Part shown: positions 10,510-53,664 of the stretch, piece after piece | Layout: each line of letters opens with the position of its first letter | Position numbering within the stretch: the first letter of the stretch is position 1 | Assembly (NCBI RefSeq): GCF_056746865.1 | Contig: NZ_JBWKMP010000003.1 | DNA: 64,000 nt | Strand: one strand, 5' to 3' | DNA from: a plasmid | Made by a program: the position numbers and the translations under genes | The notes under the pieces: generated by a model | Told to the model about the DNA's origin: nothing | What the model saw: only the letters and a program-made list of their open reading frames with translations | The model's database searches: none

Positions 10510-10632
10510 AGCGTTTTACCTCAATGATACTGTTTATTCATACAGTATACATTGAAAAGGCATAGTTTGTGAAAGCGGGGTTTGTAGGCGCGCCACGCTG
10601 GGGGCTAATCACATTTCTCCCCCATCTTGCCG

Positions 10633-10884: not shown

Positions 10885-10886
10885 AT

Positions 10887-11153: not shown

Positions 11154-11198
11154 ATACAAAAATCCCCTCTGTGAATTGAGGGGATTTTAGCATGGTGA

Positions 11199-11834: not shown

Positions 11835-12187
11835 TTCTTTTCACATTCCTTAGTCCATTTTTCAATGTTCATTTTGGCAATATCAGTCATTCCATCACCT
11901 AAGAAATACTTTTTCCGGTATGTCTTGCACTTAAACCACACTACAACAGCCACCAGCCAGAAAATAAAAGGCCATACAGCAATACCAACGACAGCCGCGA
12001 TAAAGCCCAATAGCCATAAATGAAGCTCTCCAACTTCTGTTTCCGGCAATATTCTTAAAGAATTAAACAGCAGGCTGAACGAATGGTCGTATGCATTGGC
12101 GGTATAAGACATGCAATCCATATAATTAAAGTCATAGCCTGCGGCTGCCGCCCATAATGGGCGGTCAAGAAAATGTTTTAGTGTCAT
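11816..12187 (-). CDS. putative membrane protein
   Basis: Two strongly hydrophobic segments (LWLLGFIAAVVGIAVWPFIFWLVAVVVWF); short overlap with the downstream gene. Confidence 0.4.
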   Translation of the reverse strand: MTLKHFLDRPLWAAAAGYDFNYMDCMSYTANAYDHSFSLLFNSLRILPETEVGELHLWLLGFIAAVVGIAVWPFIFWLVAVVVWFKCKTYRKKYFLGDGMTDIAKMNIEKWTKECEKKWRKKK

Positions 12188-12196
12188 TATATAAAT

Positions 12197-12490
12197 TTAA
12201 GGTTCAGACCAGTTATCTTCAATAGCAATGCTTAATCTTTGTAGCCATTCTGCTAATTTCAGCATTGCTTCTCTTTCGCTTAAACCACGAGGAAAATCAT
12301 CAAGCGAAATTGTTGGCTTGAATCCCCCGCAATTATCCATTTCAACTGTCAGATTTTGTTCCAGCACGGTATTTCTTACGCGGCTATTGTGCCGAAGCAA
12401 ATATACTGAGCGTGATTTATTGGTTTTGTGGTCTAGCTTATATTCGGTAAGTATCATCTGGCTTTTGCCATGATTATTACCTCTCCACAT
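12197..12490 (-). CDS. hypothetical protein
   Basis: Start at the internal ATG with GTGAGG Shine-Dalgarno; the upstream part of the track ORF is the alternate frame of a separate small ORF. Confidence 0.4.
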   Translation of the reverse strand: MWRGNNHGKSQMILTEYKLDHKTNKSRSVYLLRHNSRVRNTVLEQNLTVEMDNCGGFKPTISLDDFPRGLSEREAMLKLAEWLQRLSIAIEDNWSEP

Positions 12491-12497
12491 ACTTACC

Positions 12498-12620
12498 TCA
12501 CTTAATAAAACAACTCCATGCGTAGTTGATGATTTTTTCCCACGTAATATAAATCTGCACTCCGGCAGTAAAACCAAAGCCAACAATTGCTGAAAAAATC
12601 AAAACATTTACTTTTGACAT
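12498..12620 (-). CDS. small hydrophobic peptide (40 aa)
   Basis: MSKVNVLIFSAIVGFGFTAGVQIYITWEKIINYAWSCFIK; ORF found by eye, below the track's size cutoff. Confidence 0.25.
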   Translation of the reverse strand: MSKVNVLIFSAIVGFGFTAGVQIYITWEKIINYAWSCFIK

Positions 12621-12668
12621 TATAAATTTTCTCTCGGTGTCGTAGGTGATAGCACCATAATTGATAAT

Positions 12669-12902
12669 TTAGTGAGTTAGCAGTTCCATTTTTTTGATGA
12701 TTTCCGCATGAGCATCATCGTTATCAACACTTAGCTCGTTTAATGCTTCTCGCACTACATCAACTTCTTCAGGCTGAAAGAAGTCGTCGCGGTAATCACC
12801 AAATAGAACCGAAACCAGCCTGCCACCAGCAACATCAAGATTGGCGCTAACAGGTGGCTCTTTGCCATCCTCAAATTCGACTACAAAAGTTAATTTTCCC
12901 AT
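12669..12902 (-). CDS. hypothetical protein
   Basis: 77-aa acidic ORF in the operon frame chain. Confidence 0.4.
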   Translation of the reverse strand: MGKLTFVVEFEDGKEPPVSANLDVAGGRLVSVLFGDYRDDFFQPEEVDVVREALNELSVDNDDAHAEIIKKMELLTH

Positions 12903-12978
12903 CGTTACCCCCAGAAGATAAAAATAGCGGCAATCGCCATAGCTACGCCTACAATCGCAAATGCTTCAGGCCAGCTTA

Positions 12979-13239
12979 TTACCTCACCTCCAGTCTCCAT
13001 ACCGCCTGACCAATCCGGCTGGCATGGGTATCTTTGGATACTGTTCCATCTTTAGCCAGCTCCATAAGAATTTTGCGCAAATCTGCCGAACGCCATTCTT
13101 CATCAGGAAATTCCTTCTCCATTGCCAACCGCAGATTCCAGGTTGCTATCGTGAATGGATATTCCCCGCCGAGAGCTTTCTCTTGCAGGGCAGCACGGGA
13201 ACGTATCACCTGCAAAACCTTCTCTTTTACATCCATCAT
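12979..13239 (-). CDS. hypothetical protein
   Basis: Start at ATG with AGGAGG Shine-Dalgarno (MMDVKEKV..); overlaps the stop of the upstream gene. Confidence 0.35.
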   Translation of the reverse strand: MMDVKEKVLQVIRSRAALQEKALGGEYPFTIATWNLRLAMEKEFPDEEWRSADLRKILMELAKDGTVSKDTHASRIGQAVWRLEVR

Positions 13240-13934
13240 TTTGCCTCCTGCGGCGGTTCTGGTAGCGGCATCCAGTGTGATGGTATCCACGACGCACCAG
13301 GTATTACCCACCCATCATTAGCGTCAGGATGCCCCGGGATGTAAGTCGCCCATTTCATTCGCCAGTCACCTTTCCTGTCAAACTCCCTGGCAACAAGAAC
13401 GGCTGTTTTGGTATCCGGCATTCGCTCACTACAGCTTATCCAACTATCCGGAATTACCGGATAGTTGCCCGACAGCTTGTTCAACTTGTAAGTCTGGCTT
13501 ACAGGTTTGGCACCATGAAGCATGGCGTCGCTCCGCTCTATGCCATCCAGCGCGATTCGCAGTGCCTGAATTGTGGTAGAGCTATCGTTTGGGGCTATTC
13601 CATATCGCTCGAATACAGCTAAATGGTTGCGCATAATCTCAGGCGTAAGCTCTTTGTAAGCATAAGCAAGAGACTCTGATGCATTATCCGGCACAACCGA
13701 CGCAAGCGCGGCAGCATAAACAGGAATAACGTCCACTTGCTCTTTATTGCTTTCATCCGTTAAAGCCCAGAATAATTTCCCGGCCGGATGTTTGAAAATA
13801 TAAGCAATTGGTTCTGCTTCCAGCGATGCCAGAGCAATTTCATACGACCGTCGCTCAATATTGTCTCGCACGTCCAGGCTGCTGATACGCTCTTTGATTT
13901 CTTTAATCAGTTCTTTGTCGGTTAAAGTGGTCAT
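13236..13934 (-). CDS. DUF551-domain protein
   Basis: C-terminal segment (TAVLVAREFDRKGDW...WIPSHWMPLPEPP) matches the DUF551 signature as recalled. Confidence 0.5.
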   Translation of the reverse strand: MTTLTDKELIKEIKERISSLDVRDNIERRSYEIALASLEAEPIAYIFKHPAGKLFWALTDESNKEQVDVIPVYAAALASVVPDNASESLAYAYKELTPEIMRNHLAVFERYGIAPNDSSTTIQALRIALDGIERSDAMLHGAKPVSQTYKLNKLSGNYPVIPDSWISCSERMPDTKTAVLVAREFDRKGDWRMKWATYIPGHPDANDGWVIPGASWIPSHWMPLPEPPQEAK

Positions 13935-13944
13935 AAATTATGCC

Positions 13945-14181
13945 TCAGTTGTATCCGATTGGATTAACCGCAACAAGAACGCCATCCGCGAACAAATCTT
14001 TAATGAGGTGTTCGCTCGGCTCGCCTTTTTCGTACTCTTCAATAAGGTAAGTGTCTCCATCTTCATTGATATAAACAGGAAGGATGGAGCCGTTGATAAA
14101 GTAGGTTCCGTTGTTATCGAGGATTTTTGCCTCGGCGATTTGTTTTTTGGTAAAACGCTCTTCTTTTGTCAAAGTTGCCAT
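13945..14181 (-). CDS. hypothetical protein
   Basis: Start at the internal ATG (MATLTKEERF..). Confidence 0.35.
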   Translation of the reverse strand: MATLTKEERFTKKQIAEAKILDNNGTYFINGSILPVYINEDGDTYLIEEYEKGEPSEHLIKDLFADGVLVAVNPIGYN

Positions 14182-14182
14182 A

Positions 14183-14401
14183 TCAGCTTTCCTTATATGG
14201 GTTGATTTTGTTGTGCAATGTGTTGAACGACGCCCATACCACGTCGTTATACAATTCAATAACTGGCTCAATTATTTTCCCGATTCCCCATACCAGAATT
14301 AACGGGGATATCGGTATCATCAACACGATAAACAGAATGAGAAACAGAAATTCTGTTATTCGGCTTCTTTGCGGATATTCTTTTCTGAATAATGTTGGCA
14401 C
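14183..14401 (-). CDS. small membrane protein
   Basis: GTG start after AAGGAGAG; hydrophobic core ITEFLFLILFIVLMIPISPLILVWGIG. Confidence 0.35.
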   Translation of the reverse strand: MPTLFRKEYPQRSRITEFLFLILFIVLMIPISPLILVWGIGKIIEPVIELYNDVVWASFNTLHNKINPYKES

Positions 14402-14402
14402 A

Positions 14403-14624
14403 TCACTCTCCTTTGCCCGCAGCTTTCGCCTGCTCTTTAGCAAGTCGCTCCGCTTCTCTGAAATCCCAATCCACTCGATGTGCGATATCAATTGCAGAAC
14501 GCACGGTTCGTTCAATTAGCGTATCCAGGTTATCAATTGTCATTGCCATATCTGGATTTCGAGATAAAATCTCCGCCCTCTGAATCTGCCAGTTGTTACA
14601 GGTTTCAAGTAATGAGTTAGCCAT
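14403..14624 (-). CDS. hypothetical protein
   Basis: ATG preceded by AAGGAGA (MANSLLETCNNWQ..). Confidence 0.4.
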   Translation of the reverse strand: MANSLLETCNNWQIQRAEILSRNPDMAMTIDNLDTLIERTVRSAIDIAHRVDWDFREAERLAKEQAKAAGKGE

Positions 14625-14625
14625 A

Positions 14626-14814
14626 TCACTCTCCTTTAGTGCGCAAGTGGTTTTTCCAGCGGTTTTGCGCCGCGCTGGGCTTTTTGCAAAAACCACAATC
14701 CATCATCCCGTAATATTTCATCAACCCCATCCGTCGGTTGCTGAGTCTCACCCACTGCCAGACGCCAGGAGCGTTTCTACGAACTAACAGAATCTTTGCT
14801 TTACGGTTTTTCAT
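14626..14814 (-). CDS. small basic protein (MKNRKAK family, copy 1)
   Basis: 62 aa, Lys/Arg-rich, with CGFC; start overlaps the stop of copy 2 (ATGA). Confidence 0.4.
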   Translation of the reverse strand: MKNRKAKILLVRRNAPGVWQWVRLSNRRMGLMKYYGMMDCGFCKKPSAAQNRWKNHLRTKGE

Positions 14815-14987
14815 CTTACAGCGTACCCTTTCTTCCGCCTGTTCTGTGACGCAGTAGGCTTACGCTTTGCGGCAAAAGCCACCTGACCAAATGGATGGAG
14901 TACCGCTATCTTATGGTTGCTAATAACCAGCTCCACCACACGCACAGGTCGCTGTAAAAAAAGTCGTTTTGCCTTACGGTTTTTCAT
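14811..14987 (-). CDS. small basic protein (MKNRKAK family, copy 2)
   Basis: 58 aa (MKNRKAKRLFLQRPVRV..); AGGAGAG Shine-Dalgarno; found by eye, below the track cutoff. Confidence 0.35.
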   Translation of the reverse strand: MKNRKAKRLFLQRPVRVVELVISNHKIAVLHPFGQVAFAAKRKPTASQNRRKKGYAVR

Positions 14988-15079
14988 CGCTTTGCTCTCC
15001 TGCGTCTCTTTGCTGCTCGTCGTGCCGCTGCAATACCGGTATGGCGGCGCTTTGGTGCCGGGATGATGTTGTCAGCCAT
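14984..15079 (-). CDS. tiny Arg-rich ORF (31 aa)
   Basis: MADNIIPAPKRRHTGIAAARRAAKRRRRAKR; stop overlaps the next ATG; no clear Shine-Dalgarno. Confidence 0.2.
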   Translation of the reverse strand: MADNIIPAPKRRHTGIAAARRAAKRRRRAKR

Positions 15080-15159
15080 CAGGACATACGGCTTTGCAAT
15101 TAGCGCAGAAGCCCAAAAACGAGTCGGGTACGGTAACAAGCCGATACATGCCACACGCA

Positions 15160-15912
15160 TTACTCACCTCCTTTGATGCGAATGCCTGCGGCGCGGATTG
15201 CAGCGATGACTTCAGAAACTTTGTATGCCATTACCGTTTGGTAATCATCGTGAAAATCTGTTCGATGAAGCATGCTGCTACGTTCCGGGAGCGATATTTC
15301 CCGAGCATCCAGTTCCTTAACGCGTTCCTCCAGTTCGTAGACCCTGCATTGTTCTCTATCATCAATCAGATATACCCCAAGACATTCGCTTTCTACCCAA
15401 CCGCCAAAATCATGATCGTAACGCTCACATGAAAACTCACCGTCACCGTCCTTTGTTGGAATGGTGTAACTATCTAATGGGCCACCATATGTCGGCACAT
15501 TTCCCAATGTTGGATGCTCAATCCACATGAAAAATGCACGTCCGGTTATTGGGCAAATATCTGGCCGCCATTGGTTACGAACAGCCTTGGTTTCGGATAA
15601 TTCTTCAGCGTGTTGTTTTACTTCCTCAAGCTCAACTCTCAGCTTCCCTACCGTTAGCGCAATATCCTCGTTCTCCTGATCGCGGCGTTTTATGTATTGC
15701 TGGTTTCTTTCCCGTTCATCCAGCAGCGCCAGCACGGTTTCTGGTCCGGTCAGAAATTTGAAGGCGTTGAGCGCATCAATATCCACACCGTAATCTTTAA
15801 GTTCCTGTTCACTTAACAAATCATCATCAGCTGGCAACATTAACAGGCGTTCCATTGCTGGAATTGCACGTTCCGCCGCCTCACGCAGTGCCTGGTAATT
15901 AATTTCGCTCAC
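15160..15912 (-). CDS. Ea22-like family protein
   Basis: Contains [35 protein letters not shown] and the C-terminal [10 protein letters not shown] typical of Ea22-like prophage proteins; GTG start overlaps the upstream stop. Confidence 0.6.
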   Translation of the reverse strand: MSEINYQALREAAERAIPAMERLLMLPADDDLLSEQELKDYGVDIDALNAFKFLTGPETVLALLDERERNQQYIKRRDQENEDIALTVGKLRVELEEVKQHAEELSETKAVRNQWRPDICPITGRAFFMWIEHPTLGNVPTYGGPLDSYTIPTKDGDGEFSCERYDHDFGGWVESECLGVYLIDDREQCRVYELEERVKELDAREISLPERSSMLHRTDFHDDYQTVMAYKVSEVIAAIRAAGIRIKGGE

Positions 15913-16571
15913 TGGTTGCCTCCTTTGCGAAGCTGGGCAGCAAAGTCAACTAACCACTCAGTCATTTCAACCTTCCCTACCAGGTCGGAACCAGGGTGCA
16001 TACAGCAATCACTCTGCGCCGCTTTGAAATCCTTACACTCATATTCTTTGGCCACCAGATTTTTTGCAGCTTCTATAGCAGCATCCACCCCCTGCGCCCG
16101 CACTTCAGCCAGAAAAGCATCGGTAGCTGGAGTTTCGCTGTGGTGTAGGGCATCGTTGATAATCATTGCAGCAACACCAGCCTGCCCTGCATCCGTGACC
16201 GACACATGCTCAAGAGTTACGGCCATTGCGTGTTTCAGCCCAGCGTTCTCTGCCACCAGCGCAGCGATATTAGTCTCAAGCTCTGAAATTCGGCACGTGG
16301 CATCAATATTTGTGTCCTCCAAGCACTTAATTTCACCAAGCAGCTCCAGTGCAACCTTTGGGTTGAACGCGGCAACATGACGAGCGTTGTTCTCTGCATT
16401 TTTCTGTCCATCAAAGCCGGTCCATTTGATAACGTCTTCACATCGTTCATCACCGGGCGTGTGCACCGCATAAGTACCAGTATCCGTCGAAATAAATGCG
16501 ACCCATTCGTCTGGTGTTGCCTTTTCTGCCGCCTCACGCAGTACCTGATAGTCAATTGTCATTCTCGCCAT
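15909..16571 (-). CDS. accessory protein, [13 protein letters not shown] / QLRKGGNQ paralog family
   Basis: Shares the TDAFLAE(V/I)RA motif and C-terminal QLRKGGNQ with 21036-21803, 22951-23454 and 17200-17439. Confidence 0.5.
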   Translation of the reverse strand: MARMTIDYQVLREAAEKATPDEWVAFISTDTGTYAVHTPGDERCEDVIKWTGFDGQKNAENNARHVAAFNPKVALELLGEIKCLEDTNIDATCRISELETNIAALVAENAGLKHAMAVTLEHVSVTDAGQAGVAAMIINDALHHSETPATDAFLAEVRAQGVDAAIEAAKNLVAKEYECKDFKAAQSDCCMHPGSDLVGKVEMTEWLVDFAAQLRKGGNQ

Positions 16572-17203
16572 CCTTCACAGTTGTAATCACTACAGCCTTC
16601 AAAATCATATGGGCTGTACTGCCAGGTTATTTTTCCGCAATGCGGACAATTCCAACGCACCTTCCCGCTTCGCGACTTCTTTCTTCTGTTCTGCTCTTTC
16701 AACCAGTCAGGCATGATCAAACCTGCGCCCTGAACCATTGTTCTGCGGTTAAAGTTATTGATATTGAACGTCCGGCGCTTTGCTGCATCAGCAATGGAAA
16801 ATGGCAACCAAACTATTCCTGGTTCGTTTTTGTTGGCGACGCTAAAGATGGTCGCTTTACTGAAGTCATCTGTTGGCAATCCACCGTGTTGAAGCCAGTA
16901 AACATCGTTGCCGTTCCAGCTACCTTTTTTGTAGGCCACATACGCAGTGCAATCTGACTCAATCAGGCTTTCTGTAGGGATGTACTGGCAATCAACGTGC
17001 CACACAGCCATTGCATCCACGCTATCAGCGCAAACAGGCTGATCGATATCTCGCCCACAATTCCAGGCTTTTTGGGCTTCTTCCAGCGTGTAAACATGAG
17101 CGCGATCGATATCAGAGCTATAACCATTGCCGTTATGGCAATGGAATGAGGCGTTATTACCCACAGTTTCACGCAAGCACATCATGTAAAAACGGTTACT
17201 CAC
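16559..17203 (-). CDS. zinc-ribbon protein
   Basis: GTG start overlapping the upstream stop after AAGGAGG; C-terminal CPHCG...CEGW zinc ribbon. Confidence 0.45.
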   Translation of the reverse strand: MSNRFYMMCLRETVGNNASFHCHNGNGYSSDIDRAHVYTLEEAQKAWNCGRDIDQPVCADSVDAMAVWHVDCQYIPTESLIESDCTAYVAYKKGSWNGNDVYWLQHGGLPTDDFSKATIFSVANKNEPGIVWLPFSIADAAKRRTFNINNFNRRTMVQGAGLIMPDWLKEQNRRKKSRSGKVRWNCPHCGKITWQYSPYDFEGCSDYNCEGWRE

Positions 17204-17439
17204 TGGTTGCCTCCTTGGCGGAGTTGCGCTGCGATGCATGAAAAAAAAGACTCCCGAGTGTGACAGTTAAGAGCTGGTGCGAACGCCGCGTTAAGAACGG
17301 CGGCATCACAGCCGTCATCAATATAGAGCGCAATTTTTTTCTCCAGGCGCGCTTTGGCTTCCTGCAACTGCATACCCCGGCACGCACGCGGGATATAATC
17401 AGCAATTTGAGCGATAGCTTTTTCGTTCTGTTTAAACAT
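17200..17439 (-). CDS. small protein with C-terminal AAQLRQGGNQ
   Basis: 79 aa; its conserved C-terminal codons double as the Shine-Dalgarno for the next gene. Confidence 0.45.
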   Translation of the reverse strand: MFKQNEKAIAQIADYIPRACRGMQLQEAKARLEKKIALYIDDGCDAAVLNAAFAPALNCHTRESFFSCIAAQLRQGGNQ

Positions 17440-17635
17440 GCTTCACCTCGATAGGCTTGATGGTGTCTAACAGCAGTCGGCGGCGCGTATTTTCTGCAAA
17501 ATGGCGGCGTCCAGTTTCTTTGTGGTAAAACTCGTTTTTGCCGACGACCCACATCCGCTCTGTTTGGTGCAGTTTTTTTACCTTCGGGCCATCTTTGGTG
17601 ATCACGGTACCGGTATGGGTTTTTACGATTGTCAT
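17432..17635 (-). CDS. hypothetical protein
   Basis: 67-aa basic ORF within the operon chain. Confidence 0.35.
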   Translation of the reverse strand: MTIVKTHTGTVITKDGPKVKKLHQTERMWVVGKNEFYHKETGRRHFAENTRRRLLLDTIKPIEVKHV

Positions 17636-17718
17636 GCCACTACCTATTCGAACAGATGAACGAGACAGGCCGATGCTCGTCCACCTGAAAAACTGACGAT
17701 TTGATGCATACTCACGGT

Positions 17719-18447
17719 TTATTCCTGAATGCGCTTAAACTCGATTACCCACACCCAGGGATTAGCGTTCCAGCTTTCTTCACCATAGATGGATTCCCAC
17801 AGGCGCTGGAACGCAACCTTGGCCATTGCGAAATCCCCCTTGGGAGTAAGGAATGTTCCCGGGTGATCAGGAAGCAAACTTCCAGCAGGCGGAACGCCCT
17901 CAGCCCTTGCATCGCATTCGCTGATATCGTTCAACCGTTCAACGCGCACGTTGGTAATTTCCAACAGAATGCGTGATGCCCATCGCGGCATGTGAATTGA
18001 TGGACGCCACCCACCATCAAACTTTTCATTCACAGTGTGAGGTTTCCAGTCGGCATCATCGGGTATCGACCATAAGCCGTAATCACCAGGTTTTTGCTCG
18101 CAACTGGCCCGATAAATCCTTGCTGCGTTCTTCTCATCGCCACGACAAAGGTTGTCGTTCCAGTCCACACTGCAACCATCCTCATTGCCTAATATCGCCC
18201 ATGTTTCACGAACCCAAATTCGATCGCCGACGATACCAAATGGGCAATTGAAAACACTGCTTACACCATCAGCCCCGTACCACTGAAAACCTGCACCAAT
18301 TTTTCTAACCATCACTGGTGCTTCTGGACCAACTTCCGCAGGCTGATTTTTCATTATCCGCCGCGTCTGCGTTTTCCTTCCTTCGAGGATGGCCCGGACC
18401 ATCTCATCGTTAAAAATCATCCCGCGTTCTTTCATTTTTTGATCCAC
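17719..18447 (-). CDS. ASCH-domain-like protein
   Basis: N-terminal FNDEMVRAILEGRKTQTRR and C-terminal WVWVIEFKRI resemble YqfB-type ASCH proteins. Confidence 0.45.
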   Translation of the reverse strand: MDQKMKERGMIFNDEMVRAILEGRKTQTRRIMKNQPAEVGPEAPVMVRKIGAGFQWYGADGVSSVFNCPFGIVGDRIWVRETWAILGNEDGCSVDWNDNLCRGDEKNAARIYRASCEQKPGDYGLWSIPDDADWKPHTVNEKFDGGWRPSIHMPRWASRILLEITNVRVERLNDISECDARAEGVPPAGSLLPDHPGTFLTPKGDFAMAKVAFQRLWESIYGEESWNANPWVWVIEFKRIQE

Positions 18448-19447: not shown

Positions 19448-19490
19448 AATGTATACCGACTCTGTTTTGTTCCGAGCGGTAAAATAATAT

Positions 19491-19520
19491 GTTAGAAAAT
19501 TAAAATCAATATTCTAACAC
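19491..19520. promoter_or_regulatory. operator-like imperfect palindrome (internal promoter region)
   Basis: GTTAGAAAAT..ATTCTAACAC between the phosphatase gene and the DUF968-like gene. Confidence 0.4.
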
Positions 19521-24564: not shown

Positions 24565-24596
24565 GTGTTAGAAAATCAATTTTGATTTTCTAACAC
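24565..24596. promoter_or_regulatory. palindromic operator in the divergent promoter region
   Basis: GTGTTAGAAAATCAA-tt-TTGATTTTCTAACAC; 15-bp arms, perfect apart from the centre. Confidence 0.55.
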
Positions 24597-24640
24597 TTTT
24601 GATCAACCATAGCGGCGATGTAGACAAACCGGGTATTTCT

Positions 24641-25216
24641 ATGAAGCAAAGCTATTGGGAGAAACAGACACAAAAAGCCCTGCAAAAACTGGCTGATCCG
24701 AAATGGCGGGAGGAACAAAGGGCAAAGCGTCTTCAGCAAGCTCAACGCCAGCAGCAGCGTGCGCGAGAAAAAGCCGCATCGCCTGAATATCGGCAAAAGA
24801 AAATTGAAAAAGCGAAGCAATATGAACAGCGAAGAAAAGAGAAGGCCGCTTCTGCTCCTGTCAAAAAAACTCGCGCGTCACGCGGCCTGAAAGGCAGAAC
24901 ACTCACAGCAGATGAGCGCCGGATACAAACTGCCATCGGTGCTCTCCCCTGCATTGCCTGCCATATGCACGGACAGCATAGCCCTGTGGTATCCCTGCAC
25001 CACATCTTCGGGAGAACAGCAGAAAACGCGCATAAATACGTCCTCCCTTTGTGTAAATGGCACCATCAACACGCAGCGCCAGCAGAGATCCGCGAGCAAT
25101 ACCCCTGGTTGGTTCCTGTTCATGCTGATGGAAAAATAGGCGGCAAAGCAGATTTCAGGCGGCACAATGCTGATGAAATGACGTTGTATCAGATGGTGAC
25201 TGAATTAATAAATTAA
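24641..25216 (+). CDS. ref: Ref-like HNH endonuclease (recombination enhancement function)
   Basis: Highly charged, basic N-terminal region followed by a Cys/His HNH-like core (CIACHMHG...LPLCKWHH); start at ATG 24641, not the track's TTG. Confidence 0.5.
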   Translation: MKQSYWEKQTQKALQKLADPKWREEQRAKRLQQAQRQQQRAREKAASPEYRQKKIEKAKQYEQRRKEKAASAPVKKTRASRGLKGRTLTADERRIQTAIGALPCIACHMHGQHSPVVSLHHIFGRTAENAHKYVLPLCKWHHQHAAPAEIREQYPWLVPVHADGKIGGKADFRRHNADEMTLYQMVTELIN

Positions 25217-25547
25217 TTTTCTAACATTTTAAGTTGAATTGTGAAATTCGCCGTTGTACATTCACAACCGATTGGTACACCGGTCAACTTTTTGAGACAA
25301 ACCGTTTGGTTTTTCGTATGATTGCCGCCGCCATACCAATGGCGGTGCAATATAGGTGGCTGAAAAGCCCCCGTTGACTCACGGTGTTCCAACCTTTATT
25401 GCGCCGCCACCAGACCGTGGAACAGTCGATGGCGGCTCCGAAAGCAAGGAGTCACTACACTATGAACAGCTACTGTCTTTTCCCATCACTCGTTATCCGC
25501 CACTCACGCGATAATCTGCATTCTTTACTCGCGCTGGGGGTGTCAAA

Positions 25548-31395: not shown

Positions 31396-31776
31396 TCATA
31401 CACCAACCAGGCTTTCAAGAGGAATGCCAAACTGGGAATGTAAACGACGAATCATAGGTAACGTTAAATTTCGTGTTCCATTTAGCACTTCGTAAACACG
31501 ATTTGACTTACCAATCGCCGGTTCCAGATCCTTCACGGTCAGCCCTTGCTGTTCCATACGGAATTTAATGGCCTCAATAGGTGATGGTGGCTCAATTGGG
31601 TAATGTTTTTTCTCGTACTCCTCAATGAGAAGACACATGACCTCAAAGAAATCACCTTCCGGGGTGTTCATTTCCGGTTCGTTATCGAACATCGGTTCGA
31701 CCGCACGCAGTGCGGCCTCATAATCTTGTTCTGTACGGATAGGTTTAATGTTCATTAATTCCAAAGGAAAGCCCAC
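31396..31776 (-). CDS. HigA/YgjM-like HTH protein (extra antitoxin-like regulator)
   Basis: MNIKPIRTEQDYEAALRAVE.. N-domain plus C-terminal HTH (GKSNRVYEVLNGTRNLTL). Confidence 0.5.
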   Translation of the reverse strand: MGFPLELMNIKPIRTEQDYEAALRAVEPMFDNEPEMNTPEGDFFEVMCLLIEEYEKKHYPIEPPSPIEAIKFRMEQQGLTVKDLEPAIGKSNRVYEVLNGTRNLTLPMIRRLHSQFGIPLESLVGV

Positions 31777-31805
31777 TTGTTAAGTGGGCTTTTTGTATGT
31801 GTTTA
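31777..31805. terminator. bidirectional-looking hairpin
   Basis: AAAGCCCACTT-gtta-AAGTGGGCTTTTT. Confidence 0.35.
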
Positions 31806-31811
31806 ACTATA

Positions 31812-32150
31812 TCAGGCTGCTTTTTTATTCAGGTTCCGCTGAGAAATAAATTTTTCAGCAGTATTGATACGACTTAACTCTTCCTGAACGCGCATATCAT
31901 TTTCGACTTCCCACAGGTCTACTGCGGTCTGAAGATTAATCCAAAAATCTACAGAAGTATCGAATGCTTTTGCCAGGCGATATGCCATATCCATCGTTAG
32001 CTTACGATTGTTATTAACAAGAGCACTTACGGTGTTACGATGAACATGAAGTATTTCTGCTAACTCGTTGATCTTAAGCTCTAACGGCTCCAGGTATTCG
32101 TACAGCAGGATATCACCTACAGTCGTCGGTTTTCTGGTTGCCTGTTTCAT
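31812..32150 (-). CDS. higA: HigA antitoxin (HTH_XRE)
   Basis: TVGDILLYEYLEPLELKINELA...DFWINLQTAVDLWEVEN follows the HigA pattern; immediately downstream of higB. Confidence 0.7.
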   Translation of the reverse strand: MKQATRKPTTVGDILLYEYLEPLELKINELAEILHVHRNTVSALVNNNRKLTMDMAYRLAKAFDTSVDFWINLQTAVDLWEVENDMRVQEELSRINTAEKFISQRNLNKKAA

Positions 32151-32221
32151 TTTTTGCCCTTACTAGCGTGCGTATTAAGTGGACTCTGGTCAGTACCTGG
32201 CCCATCCGCCGGGTATTTGTT

Positions 32222-32524
32222 TTAGTATTTGTGAGGGTCGAGATACAAGTCCTCGGCCTTTCCGTTAACCCACTTAAAAATTAACCTGTATTGCTTATTC
32301 ACCCTTATTGATGAATAGCCGTTTAGCTTCCCTGACAATTCCTCATACCGATTACCTGGTGGTGATCTCAAGTCCTTCCAAGTAGTTGCAGCATTGATAA
32401 TATCCAGCTTCCGCAACAATGTAATCTGAATATCAGAAGGTATCTTTTTGTGTGGTATTGAAAATTCAAAAAAATCATCAAGCCACTCATCCCTGAAATT
32501 CTTTATGTTAATCTTTTTGCTCAT
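32222..32524 (-). CDS. higB: HigB toxin (RelE/ParE superfamily)
   Basis: 100 aa; C-terminal RVNKQYRLIFKWVNGKAEDLYLDPHKY matches the HigB pattern. Confidence 0.7.
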   Translation of the reverse strand: MSKKINIKNFRDEWLDDFFEFSIPHKKIPSDIQITLLRKLDIINAATTWKDLRSPPGNRYEELSGKLNGYSSIRVNKQYRLIFKWVNGKAEDLYLDPHKY

Positions 32525-32687
32525 CGATCATTTTATCCTCCATGATTATTAATGAATGTCATAATGATAGCGCACTGTTGCACCGTGCGCAAGTGCATAT
32601 TGTAACAATTCCCCTCCTCCATCCAAAATCACAATCTCCCGAAAATCTTCCTTTCGATACCTGATAAATCGACCTTTGAGGACGCTT

Positions 32688-34249: not shown

Positions 34250-35230
34250 ATGTCCCAGGAGCTACAGCAATACTTTCTACAGTCCGTTACCATCAACGGA
34301 AACAAAGTACCCAGGGAGTGGATATTCACTGCCGTATATGTGGAAAAGGCAAACCTGCGTGCACCATTGCTGAAACTGGAAATTCACGACATTACCGGCA
34401 CCATAATTGATGACTGGAAAACAAAATACGGCGCAGCACTGGTTGCAGAGATGGGAGATCCACAAGGCAATTCAGGCACGTTTAAAACAACTTTTTTCGT
34501 AACATCTGCGGTGCTGGCTGGTGATGTCATCACGGTCATTGCAGTCAGTGAAGACGTTCGGATATTTAAGATCCCCGCCATACGGGCTAACCTGCATACA
34601 AATAAAACGCCTGATACCATTTTCAAGACGTATACCGGTACACTGAAAATCGCCTCCAGCGCATTGAAACGAAGCTGTACGTACCATCTTTCCGCCGGGG
34701 AAAAACCCTCCAAAATGCTATCTGAAATGGCCCGCGATAAAGGCGCTTTATGCTGGGCCTGCCGTGGTCAGTTTAACTTTTATACATTAGCTGACCTTAT
34801 GAAAGCCAAACCATCATTCACCTATGAAGGGAACAACCCCAGGGCGGAATACACGATTTCAAAAATGAGGCTTATACAGCAAGAGTATGCCGTTACGGCA
34901 AATACTCAGTATCGATTTACCGGCTATTCAATGACTGAAGGCTATGTCGAATATGGCGATAGCTCACTTCCAATACGCTATATATCCGATCCGGATATGG
35001 AAACTCTGCGCAATATGCAATTGTCGCTCGTACCCAAAATGGATATTGAGGTCGCGGGTAATCCCGACATCACGCCGGGAATGGTTATTGAGATCCTCGT
35101 GTATCGTTACGACCAGGAAAATAAGCTGGACGAATCGTTGCCTCGTAAGCTGTTGGTGAAAAACGTAGCCCATTTTGAGGACCGGATCGGCTATACAACA
35201 CGAATGATATTAGGAGTACCCAACCAGTGA
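34250..35230 (+). CDS. hypothetical protein (virion module)
   Basis: 326 aa; tightly packed with its neighbours. Confidence 0.45.
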   Translation: MSQELQQYFLQSVTINGNKVPREWIFTAVYVEKANLRAPLLKLEIHDITGTIIDDWKTKYGAALVAEMGDPQGNSGTFKTTFFVTSAVLAGDVITVIAVSEDVRIFKIPAIRANLHTNKTPDTIFKTYTGTLKIASSALKRSCTYHLSAGEKPSKMLSEMARDKGALCWACRGQFNFYTLADLMKAKPSFTYEGNNPRAEYTISKMRLIQQEYAVTANTQYRFTGYSMTEGYVEYGDSSLPIRYISDPDMETLRNMQLSLVPKMDIEVAGNPDITPGMVIEILVYRYDQENKLDESLPRKLLVKNVAHFEDRIGYTTRMILGVPNQ

Positions 35231-35904
35231 AACGCAGAGCGCAAATCGTAGGGACCAAACACCCTGCCGGACTTATGCGAGCGCAGGTCCGCATACTGCC
35301 TGACTGGAACGGTGTACCGGATGAAGACCTCCCATGGGCAGAGTATCAAATGCCTATCGGTAACGCCTTTACACCTACAGTCAGCGGCGATTTAGTCTGG
35401 GTCGAATTTCCTTATCTGGATGCTAAAGGCAGGATAGACACGCGCCGACCTTTAATCGTTGGCGCGGCGCAGGATGCCCCAGGAGGCGTACCAAATGTGC
35501 CTCCGGAAGCCTCCGGACAAGGAAACGGATGGTCGCCAGAAGAAGTTGATGGTGCTCCTGCCCGCCCCCAGTTTTCGGCGACTGAAGATTTTGTTATTCA
35601 CCGAAACAATATCCTTGAGGTCAGAACGGCTGGCGGTGGCTATGAAATAGCAAACACCGCCGCAGGATCAAGGATAGGGATGAACGAATCCGGCCAGATT
35701 TACATAATCGGCCCGGCGAATATAGTGCTTAATGCTGGAGGTGAGGTTAACGTCAAATCAAGCAGCAAAACCAATGTATCCTCAGATGGAGACGTTAATG
35801 TAAAAGGCAGCAATGTAACCGTCGCCGCTGATGGTGATATAGCCCTGAAAGCTGGTGGCGCGCTAAAAGCAACAGCGAGCAATTTCTCCTTTGTGAAGGG
35901 ATAG
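35227..35904 (+). CDS. putative baseplate spike (gpV-like)
   Basis: GTG start overlapping the upstream stop; C-terminal beta-helix-like repeats (NVKSSSKTNVSSDGDVNVKGSNVTVAADGDIALKAGGALKA). Confidence 0.35.
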   Translation: MKRRAQIVGTKHPAGLMRAQVRILPDWNGVPDEDLPWAEYQMPIGNAFTPTVSGDLVWVEFPYLDAKGRIDTRRPLIVGAAQDAPGGVPNVPPEASGQGNGWSPEEVDGAPARPQFSATEDFVIHRNNILEVRTAGGGYEIANTAAGSRIGMNESGQIYIIGPANIVLNAGGEVNVKSSSKTNVSSDGDVNVKGSNVTVAADGDIALKAGGALKATASNFSFVKG

Positions 35905-35912
35905 CAAAATGC

Positions 35913-35956
35913 AAAACTGTGTTAGATAATTGAGTTTTATTTTCTAACACAGTTTT
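35913..35956. promoter_or_regulatory. palindromic operator upstream of rdgC
   Basis: AAAACTGTGTTAGA ... TCTAACACAGTTTT: perfect 14-bp arms with GTTAGA / TCTAAC cores. Confidence 0.5.
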
Positions 35957-35963
35957 GCGAAAC

Positions 35964-36869
35964 ATGAGATTAGTCGCCTTTAAAAACATATACGTCTATC
36001 GCCTTGCCCGCGAAATTAAACTGGACTCAACCACCGTTAGTGATGCCTTAAGCCAATTCACATTCACTCCATGCGCATCACAAGAAATGGCAAAAGTCGG
36101 ATGGGTGCCGGTTCTGGCTGACAACCTGATCCATGAATACCACGGTTTTCTACTTCTCCAGCAACAGCGAGAAATTAAGCTCCTGCCCTCTCATGTCATT
36201 AAGGAGGAAGTGCAGAAAAAAGTGGAAAAGCTCGAAAATGAGCAATCTCGTAAGCTGAAGAAGTCGGAAAAAAACACCCTGAAGGATGAAGTTCTCCACT
36301 CTTTGTTGCCTCGCGCATTCACTCGCAAATCATTGTCGCGAATCCTTATTGATCGCGACAACTATCTGGTCTTCGTAGAAGCTTCCAGCGCCAGAAAAGC
36401 AGAAGAAATGCTGGCGCTCTTACGTAAATCACTTGGCAGCCTGCCAGTGATTCCATTCACGCCGATAGAACCGCTCGAAATGACTATGACCGAATGGTTC
36501 AAGTCAACATTTCCTCAAGGCTTTAAAGCAGGCGAAGAAGCCATATTGAAATCTCTGTTCGATGACGGCGGCGCAGTTCGTTGCAAGAAAGTAGACCTAC
36601 AGTCAGAGGAAATAATGACTCATATTGAAGCCGGAAAAGTTGCAACAACAGTTGCAATCAACTGGCAGGACCGCGCGACCTTCAGGTTAAACGATGACAT
36701 GAGCATCAAAGCACTGACGTTTTGCGATGATCTCTATGACCAGAACGATGACATCGACCGTGAAGATGTTGCCCAGCGATTTGATGCTGACTTCATTCTG
36801 TTCACAAGCGAATTATCCGCGATGTTTAGCTCGCTGGTGGAGGCCATTGGCGGTGAAGCAGAGCATTAA
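35964..36869 (+). CDS. rdgC: recombination-associated protein RdgC
   Basis: Colinear with E. coli RdgC throughout (KEEVQKKVEKLENEQSRKLKKSEKNTLKDEVLHSLLPRAF...); ATG at 35964. Confidence 0.85.
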   Translation: MRLVAFKNIYVYRLAREIKLDSTTVSDALSQFTFTPCASQEMAKVGWVPVLADNLIHEYHGFLLLQQQREIKLLPSHVIKEEVQKKVEKLENEQSRKLKKSEKNTLKDEVLHSLLPRAFTRKSLSRILIDRDNYLVFVEASSARKAEEMLALLRKSLGSLPVIPFTPIEPLEMTMTEWFKSTFPQGFKAGEEAILKSLFDDGGAVRCKKVDLQSEEIMTHIEAGKVATTVAINWQDRATFRLNDDMSIKALTFCDDLYDQNDDIDREDVAQRFDADFILFTSELSAMFSSLVEAIGGEAEH

Positions 36870-36885: not shown

Positions 36886-37533
36886 GTGAGTCTTTGTGAT
36901 TATACAGGGAATATGGTTTCCCCCTGGCTGGAACACGGCATTGATGCAGTCATTGTCGATCCGCAACACCAGGAGTCCGGCAGCCAATTGATGGAGTCAG
37001 GTGCTGTACTCACACGTATCAGCGCAATTATTGACAGTGATGAGGTCTACAATTTCCTTCGGAAAAATTTGCACAGAGTTGTATTTTTAGCCGGTTTCCC
37101 TCCATGTACTGACCTGGCTGTATCTGGCGCACGCTGGTTCGCAGATAAAGCAAAAAAAGATCCGGTTTTCCAGTTCAAAGCAATGCAGGTTGTCTGGCAG
37201 TGTTACGACATTGCAAAGATGATTGGTTGCCCGTACATGATTGAAAACCCGGTCAGCCAAATATCGACATTCTGGCGTAAACCTGATCACATATTCCATC
37301 CTTATCACTTCACTGCATATTGCAAGGAAGACAATTACACCAAAAAAACATGCCTGTGGAGCGGACAAGGATTCATCATGCCAACTCCGCGAATCGACAA
37401 GTCGTTAGGTGATCCAGATAACCGAATACACAAGGCACCGCCAGGGCCTGAAAGAGCGAATTTTCGTAGCGCGACACCTTACGGTTTTGCAAGAGCTGTA
37501 TTTGAAGCAAATAAGGAGGGAATCCGTGGCTGA
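36886..37533 (+). CDS. DNA cytosine-5 methyltransferase-like protein (start uncertain)
   Basis: PC-type motif GFPPC and ENP(V) motif; GTG at 36886 chosen as the first start after the rdgC stop; overlaps the dam start by 8 nt. Confidence 0.45.
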   Translation: MSLCDYTGNMVSPWLEHGIDAVIVDPQHQESGSQLMESGAVLTRISAIIDSDEVYNFLRKNLHRVVFLAGFPPCTDLAVSGARWFADKAKKDPVFQFKAMQVVWQCYDIAKMIGCPYMIENPVSQISTFWRKPDHIFHPYHFTAYCKEDNYTKKTCLWSGQGFIMPTPRIDKSLGDPDNRIHKAPPGPERANFRSATPYGFARAVFEANKEGIRG

Positions 37534-38285
37534 TATTGGTGCTAAATTTATTTCTTATAGCGACAATCATCGTCCTGCGGCGGAAGCCACTATCAGCCAT
37601 ATGCGACGTATTCGCTCGGAGGACGAATTTGATCGCCCAGTCTTTAAGTGGGTCGGCGGCAAATTTTCTGCACTGCCCATTATCTTCGAACACCTGCCCC
37701 ACGGAAAACGGTTGATAGAACCTTTCGTTGGAGGTGGCGCTGTTTTCACTAATGCCGGATTTAAAAGCAACCTGCTGAACGATATCAATAATGACCTGAT
37801 TAACTTCTATCAGACATTGCAGCGTGAAGGGCATTCTCTTATCACACTGGCATATCGTTTTTTTCAGGATTACAACTCTGCTGATGCATTTTTGAATGTT
37901 CGCAATGCATTCAACAATGGTGCTTATGATTCCCTTCACCATGCAGCGGCGTTCCTGTATCTCAATCGTCATTGTTTTAATGGCGTCACTCGCTATAACC
38001 GTAAAGGAGAGTTCAACGTCGGATATGGAAAGCAGAAATCACCCCACTTCCCTCTCGCGGAAATGGAGGCGTTCCTGGCTGACGATATTTCAAAGTATTC
38101 GGAATTTGTGTCCGGCGATTTTGCTGGTGTAATTGAGGCTGCCGGGAATGATGATGTGATTTTCTGCGATCCCCCCTATGAACCATTGCCTGACACTACC
38201 GGATTTACAAATTACTCAGGGCATAGCTTTAGGTTTGAAGATCAACAACGGCTGGTGTCACTGCTGGTGGATGCTGGATTTGCCC

Positions 38286-39191
38286 CTATATTTCCAGACA
38301 CCTGTTATCACTTAACCCATTACTGGCCCGCTGCCGTAGATATTCCCGTGGCGAGCGATAACCCAGTGCACTATGCGGATGCCATTCGTTATAATGCTCG
38401 AACGCCTCTGCAAGGTTCTTTGCTGCCGTTAACCCGTCTGGTTTAGGCATGATACTGATGTAGTCACGCTTTATCGTTTTCACGAAGCTCTCTGCTATGC
38501 CGTTACTCTCCGGACTCCGCACCGCCGTGTTCTTCGGTTCAAGCCCCAACATCCGGGCAAACTGCCGTGTTTCATTAGCCCGGTAGCATGAACCATTATC
38601 CGTCAGCCACTCTACTGGAGACGCCGGAAGCTCGTTGCCGAAGCGGCGTTCCACCGCTCCCAGCATTACGTCCTGTACTGTTTCACTGTCGAAGCCGCCC
38701 GTAGTGACTGCCCAGTGCAGTGCCTCACGGTCACAGCAGTCCAGCGCGAACGTGACTCGCAGTTTTTCTCCGTTATCACAGCGGAACTCGAACCCGTCAG
38801 AGCACCATCGTTGATTGCTTTCTTTCACGGCCACTTTGCCAGTATGTGCCCGTTTCGATGGCGGTACAGCGGTTTTTCGCTCAAGCAACAGCGCATTCTG
38901 GCGCATGATCCGGTAAACACGTTTGGCATTGATCGCAGGCATACCATCAAGTTCGGCCTGTCTGCGAAGCAGCGCCCATACCCGACGATAACCATACGTG
39001 GGCAGCTCTCCGATAACATGGTGTATACGGAGAAGCACATCCGTATCATCTGAGTGACGGCTGCGGCGACCATCTTTCCAGTCATCGGTTCGTCTGAGAA
39101 TGACGTGCAACTGCGCACGCGACACCCGGAGACAACGGCTGACTAAGCTTACTCCCCATCCCCGGGCAATAAGGGCGCGTGCGCTATCCAC
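38286..39191 (-). CDS. insD: IS2 transposase InsD (orfB)
   Basis: 301 aa, very close to IS2 InsD as recalled ([38 protein letters not shown]..). Confidence 0.9.
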
Positions 39192-39514
39192 TTTTTTGCA
39201 CGCCCGTATTCAACGGCTTCTTTAAGGAGTTCATTTTCCATCGTTTTTTTGCCGAGCAGGCGCTGGAGTTCTTTAATCTGCTTCATGGCAGCAGCAAGTT
39301 CAGAGGCAGGAACGACCTGCTCTCCTGCGGCCACAGCAGTAAGACTTCCCTCCTGGTATTGCTTGCGCCAGAGAAATAACTGGCTGGCTGCCACACCGTG
39401 TTGCCGGGCAACAAGGGAGACCGTCATTCCCGGTTCAAAACTCTGCTGAACAATAGCGATCTTTTCCTGTGTAGTACGCCGTCTGCGTTTCTCCGGTCCT
39501 AAGACATCAATCAT
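39149..39514 (-). CDS. insC: IS2 InsC (orfA)
   Basis: [26 protein letters not shown]..; start at the internal ATG of the track ORF. Confidence 0.85.
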
Positions 39515-39780
39515 CTGCTCTCCAATGACTAGTCTAAAAACTAGTATTAAGACTATCACTTATTTAAGTGATATTGGTTGTCTGGAGATTCAGGGGGCCA
39601 GTCTAGATGCCCACAGACGCGGAGCGAAAATTGTGATAACAAACAGTGGTGCGCCTAACATTCGCGAACTTTACGTTGGCAATGGCTTCAAGGTGTATCC
39701 TATGCCATCCCGTCGCTCTGTATCCTGTAAAGCATCAACGCGAATGATAGCTAACGACATTATAGCCACACTTAATTAAG

Positions 39781-45330: not shown

Positions 45331-45411
45331 TGTTCTAATGTTTTATGTTAGAAAATTAAGATTAAACCATACTAACACAAGATTGTTAACGAAAATTATT
45401 TTTCTAATGCT
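45331..45411. promoter_or_regulatory. divergent control region with three operator-like motifs
   Basis: TGTTCTAATG (45331), GTTAGAAAATT (45347), TTTTCTAATGC (45401); TTGACT -35-like hexamer at 45412. Confidence 0.4.
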
Positions 45412-47315: not shown

Positions 47316-47606
47316 ATGGAGGAAAAAATGGCTGATATTCAGGTAACTATTACCCCACCAAATGCGACAGATAAAACTTTCACTGTCGAATCCGATCATC
47401 CGGAAATTGTGAGTGTTGATGGAACCACATGCACCGCAGTATCTGCTGGTACTGCGGTACTAACCATCAAAACTACAGATGGAAATAAAACCGCAACATG
47501 CACTGTAACGGTTAATGAAGCCGCAGTAAGTGTCAACTCTGTCAGCGTTGATCCGTCAACCAAAGAAGTGACGGTAGGTGACAGCTTCACGGTCGGCGAA
47601 GCCTGA
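47316..47606 (+). CDS. Big_2 (bacterial Ig-like) domain protein
   Basis: TFTVESDHPEIVSVDGTTCTAVSAGTAVLTIKTTDGNKTATCTVTV matches the Big_2 pattern. Confidence 0.55.
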   Translation: MEEKMADIQVTITPPNATDKTFTVESDHPEIVSVDGTTCTAVSAGTAVLTIKTTDGNKTATCTVTVNEAAVSVNSVSVDPSTKEVTVGDSFTVGEA

Positions 47607-47609
47607 TAA

Positions 47610-47640
47610 AAGCCTCCCCATGCAAATGGGGAGGCTTCTC
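47610..47640 (+). terminator. hairpin after the Big_2 gene
   Basis: AGCCTCCCCA-tgcaaa-TGGGGAGGCTT followed by CTCTC. Confidence 0.4.
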
Positions 47641-47671
47641 TCATCCGCTCGATAAAGAGGAAAAGAGCAGC

Positions 47672-52619: not shown

Positions 52620-52910
52620 TGAGGGCAATATCTACACCTGCTGTTTACGTCAATGATGGCATTTTTTACACATCACAACAAAATCAACGCGTTACAACCA
52701 TAAAACATTCAACAGTAGTGCGATAAAAATAGCTATAGCATACGATGCCATCTGAGGGTGATTTTTACACATTCCTTATTAATCAATAAATTACAAATAA
52801 TGTTAGCCGTTAAAGATCCAACCAACTAACTAATGATGTAAGAATTGCCCTCAATCTCCCATCTTTAAGGGCAAATCCTACACCTACAGAGAGGTGTAGA
52901 AATTGCCCTT
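52620..52910. repeat. incA-like iteron cluster downstream of repA
   Basis: About five ~21-bp copies in both orientations, for example TTGAGGGCAATATCTACACCT (52620) and TAAGGGCAAATCCTACACCT (52868). Confidence 0.5.
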
Positions 52911-53664
52911 AAGACTGCTGATAGGTGAATTTTATTTTTGTAACTCTGCCACCTTCTGTAACCTCTGAGAAAACTATTTTCATTTTTGTGTTTTTTTCGA
53001 TTTCAGCTACAGCTTTTGCCAGAAAGCTTCTCTTAAATTCGGCGTACCGTTGATAGCTTTTGGGAAGACCATAACGCTCCCGCATCCATTCAACGCCAAG
53101 TATAGCGAAGCCGCTCCCATCATCCTTTCTATACTGGCATAAGGACTCATAAAGCCGCATAGAATAAGGGTTTGTCAGGCGAGACACTTCAGTAAAATTC
53201 AGCCTCGTGAACCTCTTATCAAGCAGAGTAAAAAACGGCATGAGATATGGATTCAGATGAATAATGTAAGTCCCCCGGCGTGGTGAGTAAGCCTCCTTAA
53301 TCATCCAGGGATAAGACTCATAACTGTCTTCTGATTCGGTTGATTCATCAGGGTTATATATCGTGACTTTCTTCTCACTAAGTCCGGAGATAGCTTTACG
53401 AATATCCTTGCTGGCTTCAGCAGAGGGCAAATTATACATCTCTGCATATTCGTTGACCGTCAACTCACAGGCACCTGAACCAAGAACGCCATCCTTAGAA
53501 GCATAGCGAAGTCTTCCCACCACAATAAACAACAGTCGCTTTTGGTCGCGTGTCAGGTGATAAGCCGCCTCTGTGATCTCATTGGCCTGCGCCAAGCTAC
53601 GGCTAATTGGTGTCGCTGATTCAATCAGACTGACGGCTTTTGCCGTTAATTCCGCTCTGTTCAT
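52909..53664 (-). CDS. repA: RepA-type plasmid replication initiator (start uncertain)
   Basis: Call is contextual: no sequence motif was checked; sits between two iteron clusters with a DnaA box and AT-rich tract upstream. About 250 aa from ATG 53664. Confidence 0.55.
   Translation of the reverse strand: MNRAELTAKAVSLIESATPISRSLAQANEITEAAYHLTRDQKRLLFIVVGRLRYASKDGVLGSGACELTVNEYAEMYNLPSAEASKDIRKAISGLSEKKVTIYNPDESTESEDSYESYPWMIKEAYSPRRGTYIIHLNPYLMPFFTLLDKRFTRLNFTEVSRLTNPYSMRLYESLCQYRKDDGSGFAILGVEWMRERYGLPKSYQRYAEFKRSFLAKAVAEIEKNTKMKIVFSEVTEGGRVTKIKFTYQQS

Follow-up and report, generated by a model that had tools for sequence, protein, structure and literature searches.

How a plasmid prophage controls its own copy of rdgC, and what the long palindrome standing directly in front of that gene does, are the questions raised by this locus. 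RdgC of E. coli has been shown to inhibit RecA, and an earlier note on the same DNA had proposed that a full-length, phage-encoded RdgC is placed behind an operator-like palindrome and is controlled by a repressor. The stretch of DNA analysed here, 64,000 nucleotides of the plasmid contig NZ_JBWKMP010000003.1, is called the window. Judged by sequence comparison, it represents a D6-like plasmid prophage of E. coli, related to P1. Over the 4.4 kb surrounding the rdgC locus it is 99.7% identical to the E. coli plasmid NZ_LR890273.1 (plasmid 4 of strain MINF_7C, 92.8 kb) and approximately 75% identical to phage D6, a relative of P1. In the blast mapping, position 1 of the window falls into pacA of NZ_LR890273.1.

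The rdgC gene and its operon

The gene at 35964-36869 (plus strand) encodes a protein of 301 residues, an ortholog of P1 HrdC, with matches to the Pfam RdgC family, to phrog_724, to P1 HrdC and to the E. coli RdgC structure 2OWL. The Pfam match (PF04381) covers profile positions 3-298 of 298 with an E value of 1.2e-100 and 337 bits against a cut-off of 25, and the E value for phrog_724 is 1.4e-119. Aligned to E. coli RdgC (PDB 2OWL), the product is homologous over the full length, residues 3-302 of 303 (E 1.3e-104), with the LLPRAF segment conserved, and it matches 2OWY as well (E 6.8e-62). Identity amounts to 51% with P1 HrdC (E 4e-109) and to 77% with D6 orf65, which was labelled by its depositors 'RdgC family, similar to P1 gene hrdC'. 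The end-to-end profile match, in a D6-like plasmid prophage as host, bears out the earlier description of a full-length phage-encoded RdgC, as does the alignment to the E. coli protein, and by these comparisons the gene is a genuine full-length, phage-carried RdgC homolog. The start codon is the conserved ATG at 35964; an in-frame TTG upstream, at 35955, is not conserved in D6.

E. coli RdgC, unlike the gene studied here, is the product of a chromosomal housekeeping gene without phage repressor control. That the phage protein would modulate RecA is our assumption, made by analogy with E. coli RdgC. RdgC is common among phages, with 315 records in the phage collection, so that a phage-borne copy is in itself unsurprising. 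The P1 gene hrdC was found to be non-essential in a CRISPRi screen (PMC10695390), and in a P1vir transcriptome study hrdC and dmt are reported to be under-induced in an hfq mutant (bioRxiv 10.64898/2025.12.28.696737).

Two further genes follow rdgC on the same strand with close spacing. The second gene, at 36913-37533 (plus strand), encodes a putative DNA (cytosine) methyltransferase and is called dcm-like here; it matches the DNA methyltransferase family phrog_757 (E 2e-71), gave no match in Pfam, and has as its counterpart D6 orf64, annotated 'putative DNA-cytosine methylase'. The third gene is dam, coding for an N6-adenine methyltransferase (PF02086, E 7.5e-49) and starting at the GTG at 37526. 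Only its 5' three quarters (37526-38274, plus strand) are continuous with the operon, as the gene is interrupted past about codon 250 by an IS2 element of 1331 bp (38275-39605, minus strand) with the 5-bp target duplication GATGC on both sides. These 1331 bp are extra in the window compared with NZ_LR890273.1 by blast mapping, and dam is uninterrupted in that plasmid. The 3' remainder of dam (39606-39779, plus strand) aligns to NZ_LR890273.1 from 73104 on, and the open reading frame ends at 39779. Upstream of rdgC, at 35227-35904 on the plus strand, lies a baseplate gene homologous to P1 gene 5 (phrog_430, baseplate hub; D6 orf66, 'similar to P1 gene 5'), which is a possible source of read-through transcripts into rdgC.

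The palindrome ahead of rdgC

The palindrome comprises 48 bp (35911-35958) and is read as a predicted bivalent operator of the C1 type with two inverted half-sites. The repeat finder gave arms at 35911-35930 and 35939-35958, each of 20 nt and 95% complementary, around an 8-nt centre. Among the close inverted repeats of the 64-kb window it ranks first and is the longest, and the operator-like palindrome that the earlier note placed directly before rdgC is indeed present. Its dimensions have to be revised. The arms had been described as perfect over 14 bp, which is too low, as there are 16 perfect pairs (35911-35926 with 35943-35958), followed by a T/T mismatch at 35927/35942 and three further pairs. 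The gene had been said to start 8 bp past the palindrome, and the distance from the palindrome end is 5 nt when counted to the conserved ATG. On the other side, 6 nt separate the palindrome from the stop codon of the baseplate gene (35902-35904).

The core of the palindrome consists of two inverted copies of ATTTTCTAACAY. The left operator core (35919-35930, minus strand) reads ATTATCTAACAC on the minus strand and GTGTTAGATAAT on the plus strand; it deviates from the consensus at one position and has a score of 29.2 with the position weight matrix (PWM) described below. The right operator core (35939-35950, plus strand) is ATTTTCTAACAC, an exact match to the consensus with a PWM score of 32.3. 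The outer 8 bp of each arm (35911-35918 and 35951-35958) fall outside the operator cores.

The core sequence is dispersed over the window. Allowing at most one mismatch, there are 12 copies of ATTTTCTAACAY where 0.78 are expected, a count reached in 0 of 100 shuffles, and the 32-bp geometry of a core, eight nucleotides and an inverted core is found at three loci against 0 expected. On the strength of these shuffle statistics, for the motif and for the bivalent geometry, we reject a chance origin of the palindrome. The PWM was trained on ten sites of the operator motif, and its strong matches in the window are the ten training sites only, and all ten fall between genes when placed on the annotated plasmid with 99.7% identity. 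A second bivalent operator with the same geometry lies at 24565-24596, between a leftward early operon and ref, and a third at 19489-19520, upstream of a DUF968/pdcB-like gene on the minus strand. Monovalent operator cores are located 18 nt upstream of the c1-like gene (4061-4072, plus strand), directly past the cre-like gene (5457-5468, plus strand), directly past ref and before the immI-like (ash/icd) region (25216-25227, plus strand), and between two leftward genes and the major capsid gene (45345-45356, minus strand). When the same PWM was applied to D6, sites were found adjoining c1, lpa, repL, icd/ant, ref, immI, pdcB, cre and rdgC. The operator consensus of the D6-type element is about AAATTRATTTTCTAACAY.

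The single copies at c1, cre, ref and immI, which do not form hairpins, also bear on an altogether different explanation of the palindrome, namely that it is no operator and instead an intrinsic terminator or an Lpa-dependent late promoter between the baseplate operon and rdgC. A stable hairpin sited between a late structural gene and rdgC would fit such a function, but the occurrence of the core as single copies elsewhere does not, and we regard this explanation as highly improbable. The intrinsic terminator is rejected, as the A/T-rich stem is followed by GAAACATG with no T-run, and a terminator scan was negative for window positions 35911-35965 and for the corresponding site of D6. The Lpa-dependent late promoter is likewise rejected. 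The P1 -22 box, AAGTGACTT as read from P1 LP23 and LPmat, where it stands 4 nt upstream of the -10 hexamer, is absent from the palindrome, and the late-promoter box AAGTNACTT shows no enrichment in the window (21 occurrences against 23.8 expected).

A diverged C1-type repressor and its probable operator

The presumed binder of the motif is encoded by a c1-like prophage repressor gene (3006-4043, minus strand; 345 residues), identified by homology to P1 C1 and D6 orf1 and by synteny, since it is placed as in P1, after pacB and before a lox-like site and cre. The protein has 80% identity with D6 orf1, which carries the annotation 'prophage repressor, similar to P1 gene C1', and its homology to P1 C1 is weak (21% identity over 241 residues, E 1e-7). 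We infer that the c1-like protein binds the dispersed motif. In the RefSeq annotation of P1, a 'monovalent C1-controlled operator Odmt; corresponds to former Op68' and a 'sigma 70 promoter Pdmt' stand directly upstream of uhr-hrdC-dmt, and further C1 operators are given at c1/coi/cre, before and just after ref, and before lpa. The position of the motif sites at orthologs of P1 genes controlled by C1, together with the Odmt precedent, leads us to read the palindrome as an operator. It is probably the bivalent operator of a diverged repressor of the P1 C1 type, lying over the sigma-70 promoter of a three-gene early operon. The suggestion that rdgC is repressor-controlled thus gains support from comparative evidence, that is, from the placement of the motif regulon and from Odmt-Pdmt in P1. 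C1-type control over an rdgC gene is not new, as HrdC of P1 under C1 is a direct precedent.

The candidate -10 hexamer of the rdgC promoter is GATAAT at 35925-35930 (plus strand), which is created by the single position at which the left core departs from the consensus (ATTATC, not ATTTTC). It is kept in all 18 distinct relatives compared, including the most distant one, L026, in which the left operator is lost and GATAAT and the right operator are kept. A weak candidate -35 hexamer, TAGCAA (3/6), is found at 35902-35907 (plus strand), 17 nt upstream of GATAAT and overlapping the stop codon of the baseplate gene. The arrangement TAGCAA-17-GATAAT of the window matches at 8/12 positions, which is under the threshold of the promoter scan, and TAGAAA-18-GATAAT of D6 passes the consensus promoter scan. 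From these elements we infer a sigma-70 promoter over the palindrome with a transcript start near 35937. Such a start would put the two repressor sites at about -27 to -8 and +2 to +21.

The two repressor sites would then stand back to back with their core starts 20 bp apart, the left one covering the -10 hexamer and the right one covering roughly the first twenty transcribed positions. In a lysogen both sites would be occupied by repressor and the operon would be off, and after induction or infection rdgC, the dcm-like gene and dam would be transcribed, presumably early. The operon would in this way supply an RdgC-type DNA-binding protein and DNA methylases of the phage's own. If phage RdgC restrains or modulates RecA, which we assume, this would parallel the co-resident Ref nuclease, whose gene is also flanked by operators.

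Several observations speak against the operator reading or are not covered by it. The motif differs from ATTGCTCTAATAAATTT, the consensus of P1 C1, and is of another operator type, as is to be expected when the repressor shares only 21% identity with P1 C1. The -35 hexamer in the window is poor and the palindrome is not reported by the promoter scan, and there is no clear Shine-Dalgarno sequence ahead of the rdgC ATG. The complementary outer arms are not accounted for by the operator consensus, and the element may do more than bind repressor.

Comparison with D6 and P1

The locus orf65-orf64-orf63 of D6 (MF356679) is orthologous, with the same gene order, the same operator cores and the same distance from GATAAT to the start codon. 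It differs in its outer arms, which are CCATTT/AAATGG and again complementary, and in having dam intact, without IS2. The D6 record carries no operator or promoter annotation at the rdgC locus.

The uhr-hrdC-dmt operon of P1 is similar in that an RdgC-family gene is followed by a DNA methyltransferase function in an early operon behind an operator of the C1 regulon, and P1, likewise a plasmid prophage, agrees with the window in its pacAB-c1-lox-cre and ref neighbourhoods. There are, however, differences. P1 has one operator, just upstream of the -35 hexamer, whereas here two inverted operators straddle the putative -10 hexamer and start, and the small gene uhr precedes hrdC in P1, while here the operators abut rdgC directly, without uhr. 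The P1 operator and the ATTTTCTAACAY-type operator of the window can by eye be aligned at only about 9-11 of 16-17 positions. In P1 dmt is one fused gene, in contrast to the separate dcm-like and dam genes, and the position of the operon downstream of same-strand baseplate genes is not found in P1. In its architecture the palindrome resembles the divalent P1 operators Obanab (Op72ab) and Oc1ab (Op99ab), in which inverted asymmetric copies also form a palindrome over a sigma-70 promoter (putative in our case). In these P1 operators, however, the two 17-bp copies share 6 bp, so that the whole measures 28 bp and the 3' ends lie at the centre, whereas the copies ahead of rdgC point outward, are separated by an 8-bp gap and are extended by complementary outer arms.

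Taken as comparative evidence, these likenesses suggest that P1-family plasmid prophages keep an RdgC homolog and DNA methylases under direct control of the prophage repressor, and that this control may have been kept even in elements whose repressor and operator have become too divergent to be recognized easily. For the D6 group, whose members are frequent in plasmid collections of E. coli and Salmonella, the analysis gives a usable operator consensus and a map of the sites. Both can be used for annotation and for choosing targets in functional tests of phage RdgC, P1 hrdC being non-essential. The probable operator at rdgC leaves current understanding unchanged, and the wider interest lies in whether an operator palindrome can in addition be under selection as an RNA hairpin by which early and late expression are kept apart.

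Conservation and pairing of the outer arms

The outer arms were surveyed in 27 IMG/VR loci, three metagenome loci and D6, and 18 distinct relatives were compared by ungapped alignment anchored on the operator core. When IMG/VR was scanned again with a DNA pattern, the result was the very set of 27 contigs that the protein-based scan had given. In metagenomes, at least 120 loci match GATAAT-N8-ATTTTCTAACA, a pattern too unspecific for such a database; among the matches listed three loci are D6-like, all three with D6-type arms, and the rest are chance matches. Five additional plasmid loci gave no new arm variants, and in one of them, pMUB-MIN14-1, rdgC is fragmented and the palindrome pattern is absent.

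In the 18 distinct relatives there is little or no variation in the operator cores and GATAAT, and the 8-nt centre and the flanks vary. The outer arms add 6-8 complementary bp beyond the cores, and among the bivalent operators they do so at the rdgC site only; no outer-arm complementarity was found at the bivalent sites of ref and pdcB in the window and in D6, and the flanks of the remaining operators are merely A/T-rich. Four versions of the outer arms exist (CAAAACT/AGTTTTG, CCATTT/AAATGG, CCAATT/AATTGG and TTCAAT/ATTGGA), all of them complementary and with G/C end pairs in every lineage, and in one relative (L010) both sides of one core pair are changed. In the covariation analysis 92% of cells were paired and six pairs had double changes, which was matched in 0 of 500 shuffles and compares with 37-50% paired cells in slid controls, for a sample that holds only about four independent lineages. 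At pair columns 10/41 one-sided changes give G.U on the plus strand in five sequences and A.C in one. Repressor specificity fails to explain the outer arms, given that the window and D6 have the operator core in common and their repressors share 80% identity.

The symmetry of the outer arms may be a mutational by-product, in which template switching copies one arm to the other and no selected function is involved, the element being simply a bivalent operator. Quasipalindrome correction, well established as a source of mutations in E. coli, would fit, arm-to-arm copying yields apparent compensatory changes, and the outer arms are wholly different between lineages, as expected if their sequence is irrelevant. 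On the other hand, 18 of 18 sequences have the core T/T mismatch (GATAAT opposite ATTTTC) left uncorrected, the two other bivalent operators, with arms equally close, are not extended in the window or in D6, and the G/C-ended outer arms seen throughout resemble stable stems. On balance we find this origin of the arms somewhat unlikely.

A selected function of the arms would be expected if the palindrome has a dual use, as an operator on DNA and as a 20-bp RNA hairpin that forms only on read-through transcripts from the baseplate gene, where it would hide the rdgC start or serve as a site for processing of the RNase III type or for 3' protection. Late read-through would then yield no RdgC and no methylases, and transcripts begun inside the palindrome, which lack the left arm, would be translated. 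This too we consider unlikely, and that the element is such a dual-purpose one, with a hairpin that blocks RdgC translation or directs processing on read-through RNA, is in our view distinctly doubtful. If it were so, the promoter from which a transcript originates would decide the expression of recombination and methylation genes. Read-through from the baseplate operon is an assumption, the relative that has lost the left operator is without the hairpin, and the wobble asymmetry at columns 10/41 comes from few, non-independent sequences. The hairpin is also without an Rfam family, as a search of Rfam 15 gave only sub-threshold matches to generic, miRNA-precursor-like hairpins, the best with 25.5 bits against a gathering score of 47.

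Apart from its doubtful use on RNA, the palindrome would remain the bivalent operator of the C1-type repressor. The complementarity of the outer arms, found solely at the rdgC pair and maintained in each of the lineage-specific versions, the double change in the core of L010 and the covariation against shuffled and slid controls are in line with selection for pairing, as is the excess of G.U over A.C among the one-sided changes, and the failure of repressor specificity to explain the arms points in the same direction. The palindrome region folded as RNA has a predicted energy of -28.5 kcal/mol (z = -4.7). In the folding model, the accessibility of positions -18 to +3 on read-through RNA is 0.31 for the window and 0.17 for D6, and on RNA begun after the -10 hexamer it is 0.64 and 0.52, respectively.

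Putative repressor operators at rdgC and ref

Two further bivalent operator pairs, in which two inverted copies of the presumed c1-like repressor motif are arranged with the same core-N8-core geometry as at rdgC, were found in the window, one at 24565-24596 between a leftward early operon and ref, and the other at 19489-19520 upstream of a DUF968/pdcB-like gene. The complementary outer arms are absent at both of these pairs. The gene ref, which encodes a Ref-family RecA-dependent nuclease (24633-25208 region), has operator copies at 24585 and 25216, and in P1 ref likewise has operators on both sides (Oref and Omat). Since ref is bracketed by operator copies as in P1, both recombination-related genes of the element, rdgC and ref, appear from the arrangement of these motifs to be under repressor control.

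The most distant relative, L026 (IMGVR_UViG_3300009011_000012), in which RdgC is 64% identical, keeps at about 1430-1500 the candidate -10 hexamer GATAAT and the right operator, while decay has affected the core of the left operator (GTGGACGATAAT), and the hairpin cannot form at this rdgC site. In the otherwise 95.5%-identical plasmid pMUB-MIN14-1 (NZ_CP069647.1) the annotation splits rdgC into two short fragments, and a search for the operator pattern did not find it, which reflects either decay or assembly errors.

Upstream of the baseplate operon, at about 32591-32609, the sequence AAGTGCATA-TTGT-AACAAT has a layout like that of P1 late promoters (AAGTGACTT, 4 nt, -10), and it is possible that this is a late promoter, which would feed read-through into rdgC. 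Of the sequences in the region, TTTACA-16-TATAGT (10/12, 35699-35726) fits the sigma-70 consensus best; it falls within the baseplate gene, 240 bp 5' of rdgC, and may be due to chance.

Insertion, mosaicism and other palindromes

The gene dam, third in the rdgC operon, is intact in the closest plasmid relatives, whereas in the window it is interrupted by a complete IS2 of 1331 bp (38275-39605) with the transposase genes on the minus strand and a 5-bp target duplication, GATGC, at both edges (38270-38274 and 39606-39610). Compared with the elsewhere 99%-identical plasmid NZ_LR890273.1, the regions 8295-18355 and 31755-32626 align poorly or not at all; judged from this comparison, there is mosaic replacement of the early-gene region and of the toxin-antitoxin module that precedes the baseplate operon.

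In the DNA that separates the c1-like gene from the cre-like recombinase gene (4423-5451) is a perfect palindrome (CTAACTTTAAATAAT / ATTATTTAAAGTTAG, arms 4 nt apart, 4239-4272), probably the lox-type site; in the D6 record 'rox' is annotated. The G+C-rich hairpin with 18-nt arms (TGATAAAAGCCTCCCCAT / ATGGGGAGGCTTCTCTCA) at 47604-47643, 3' of the genes for the capsid and Ig-like proteins, probably acts as a transcription terminator. Another palindrome, with 21-nt arms that are 90% complementary and a 6-nt centre (52865-52912), lies where the RepB-type replication gene ends.
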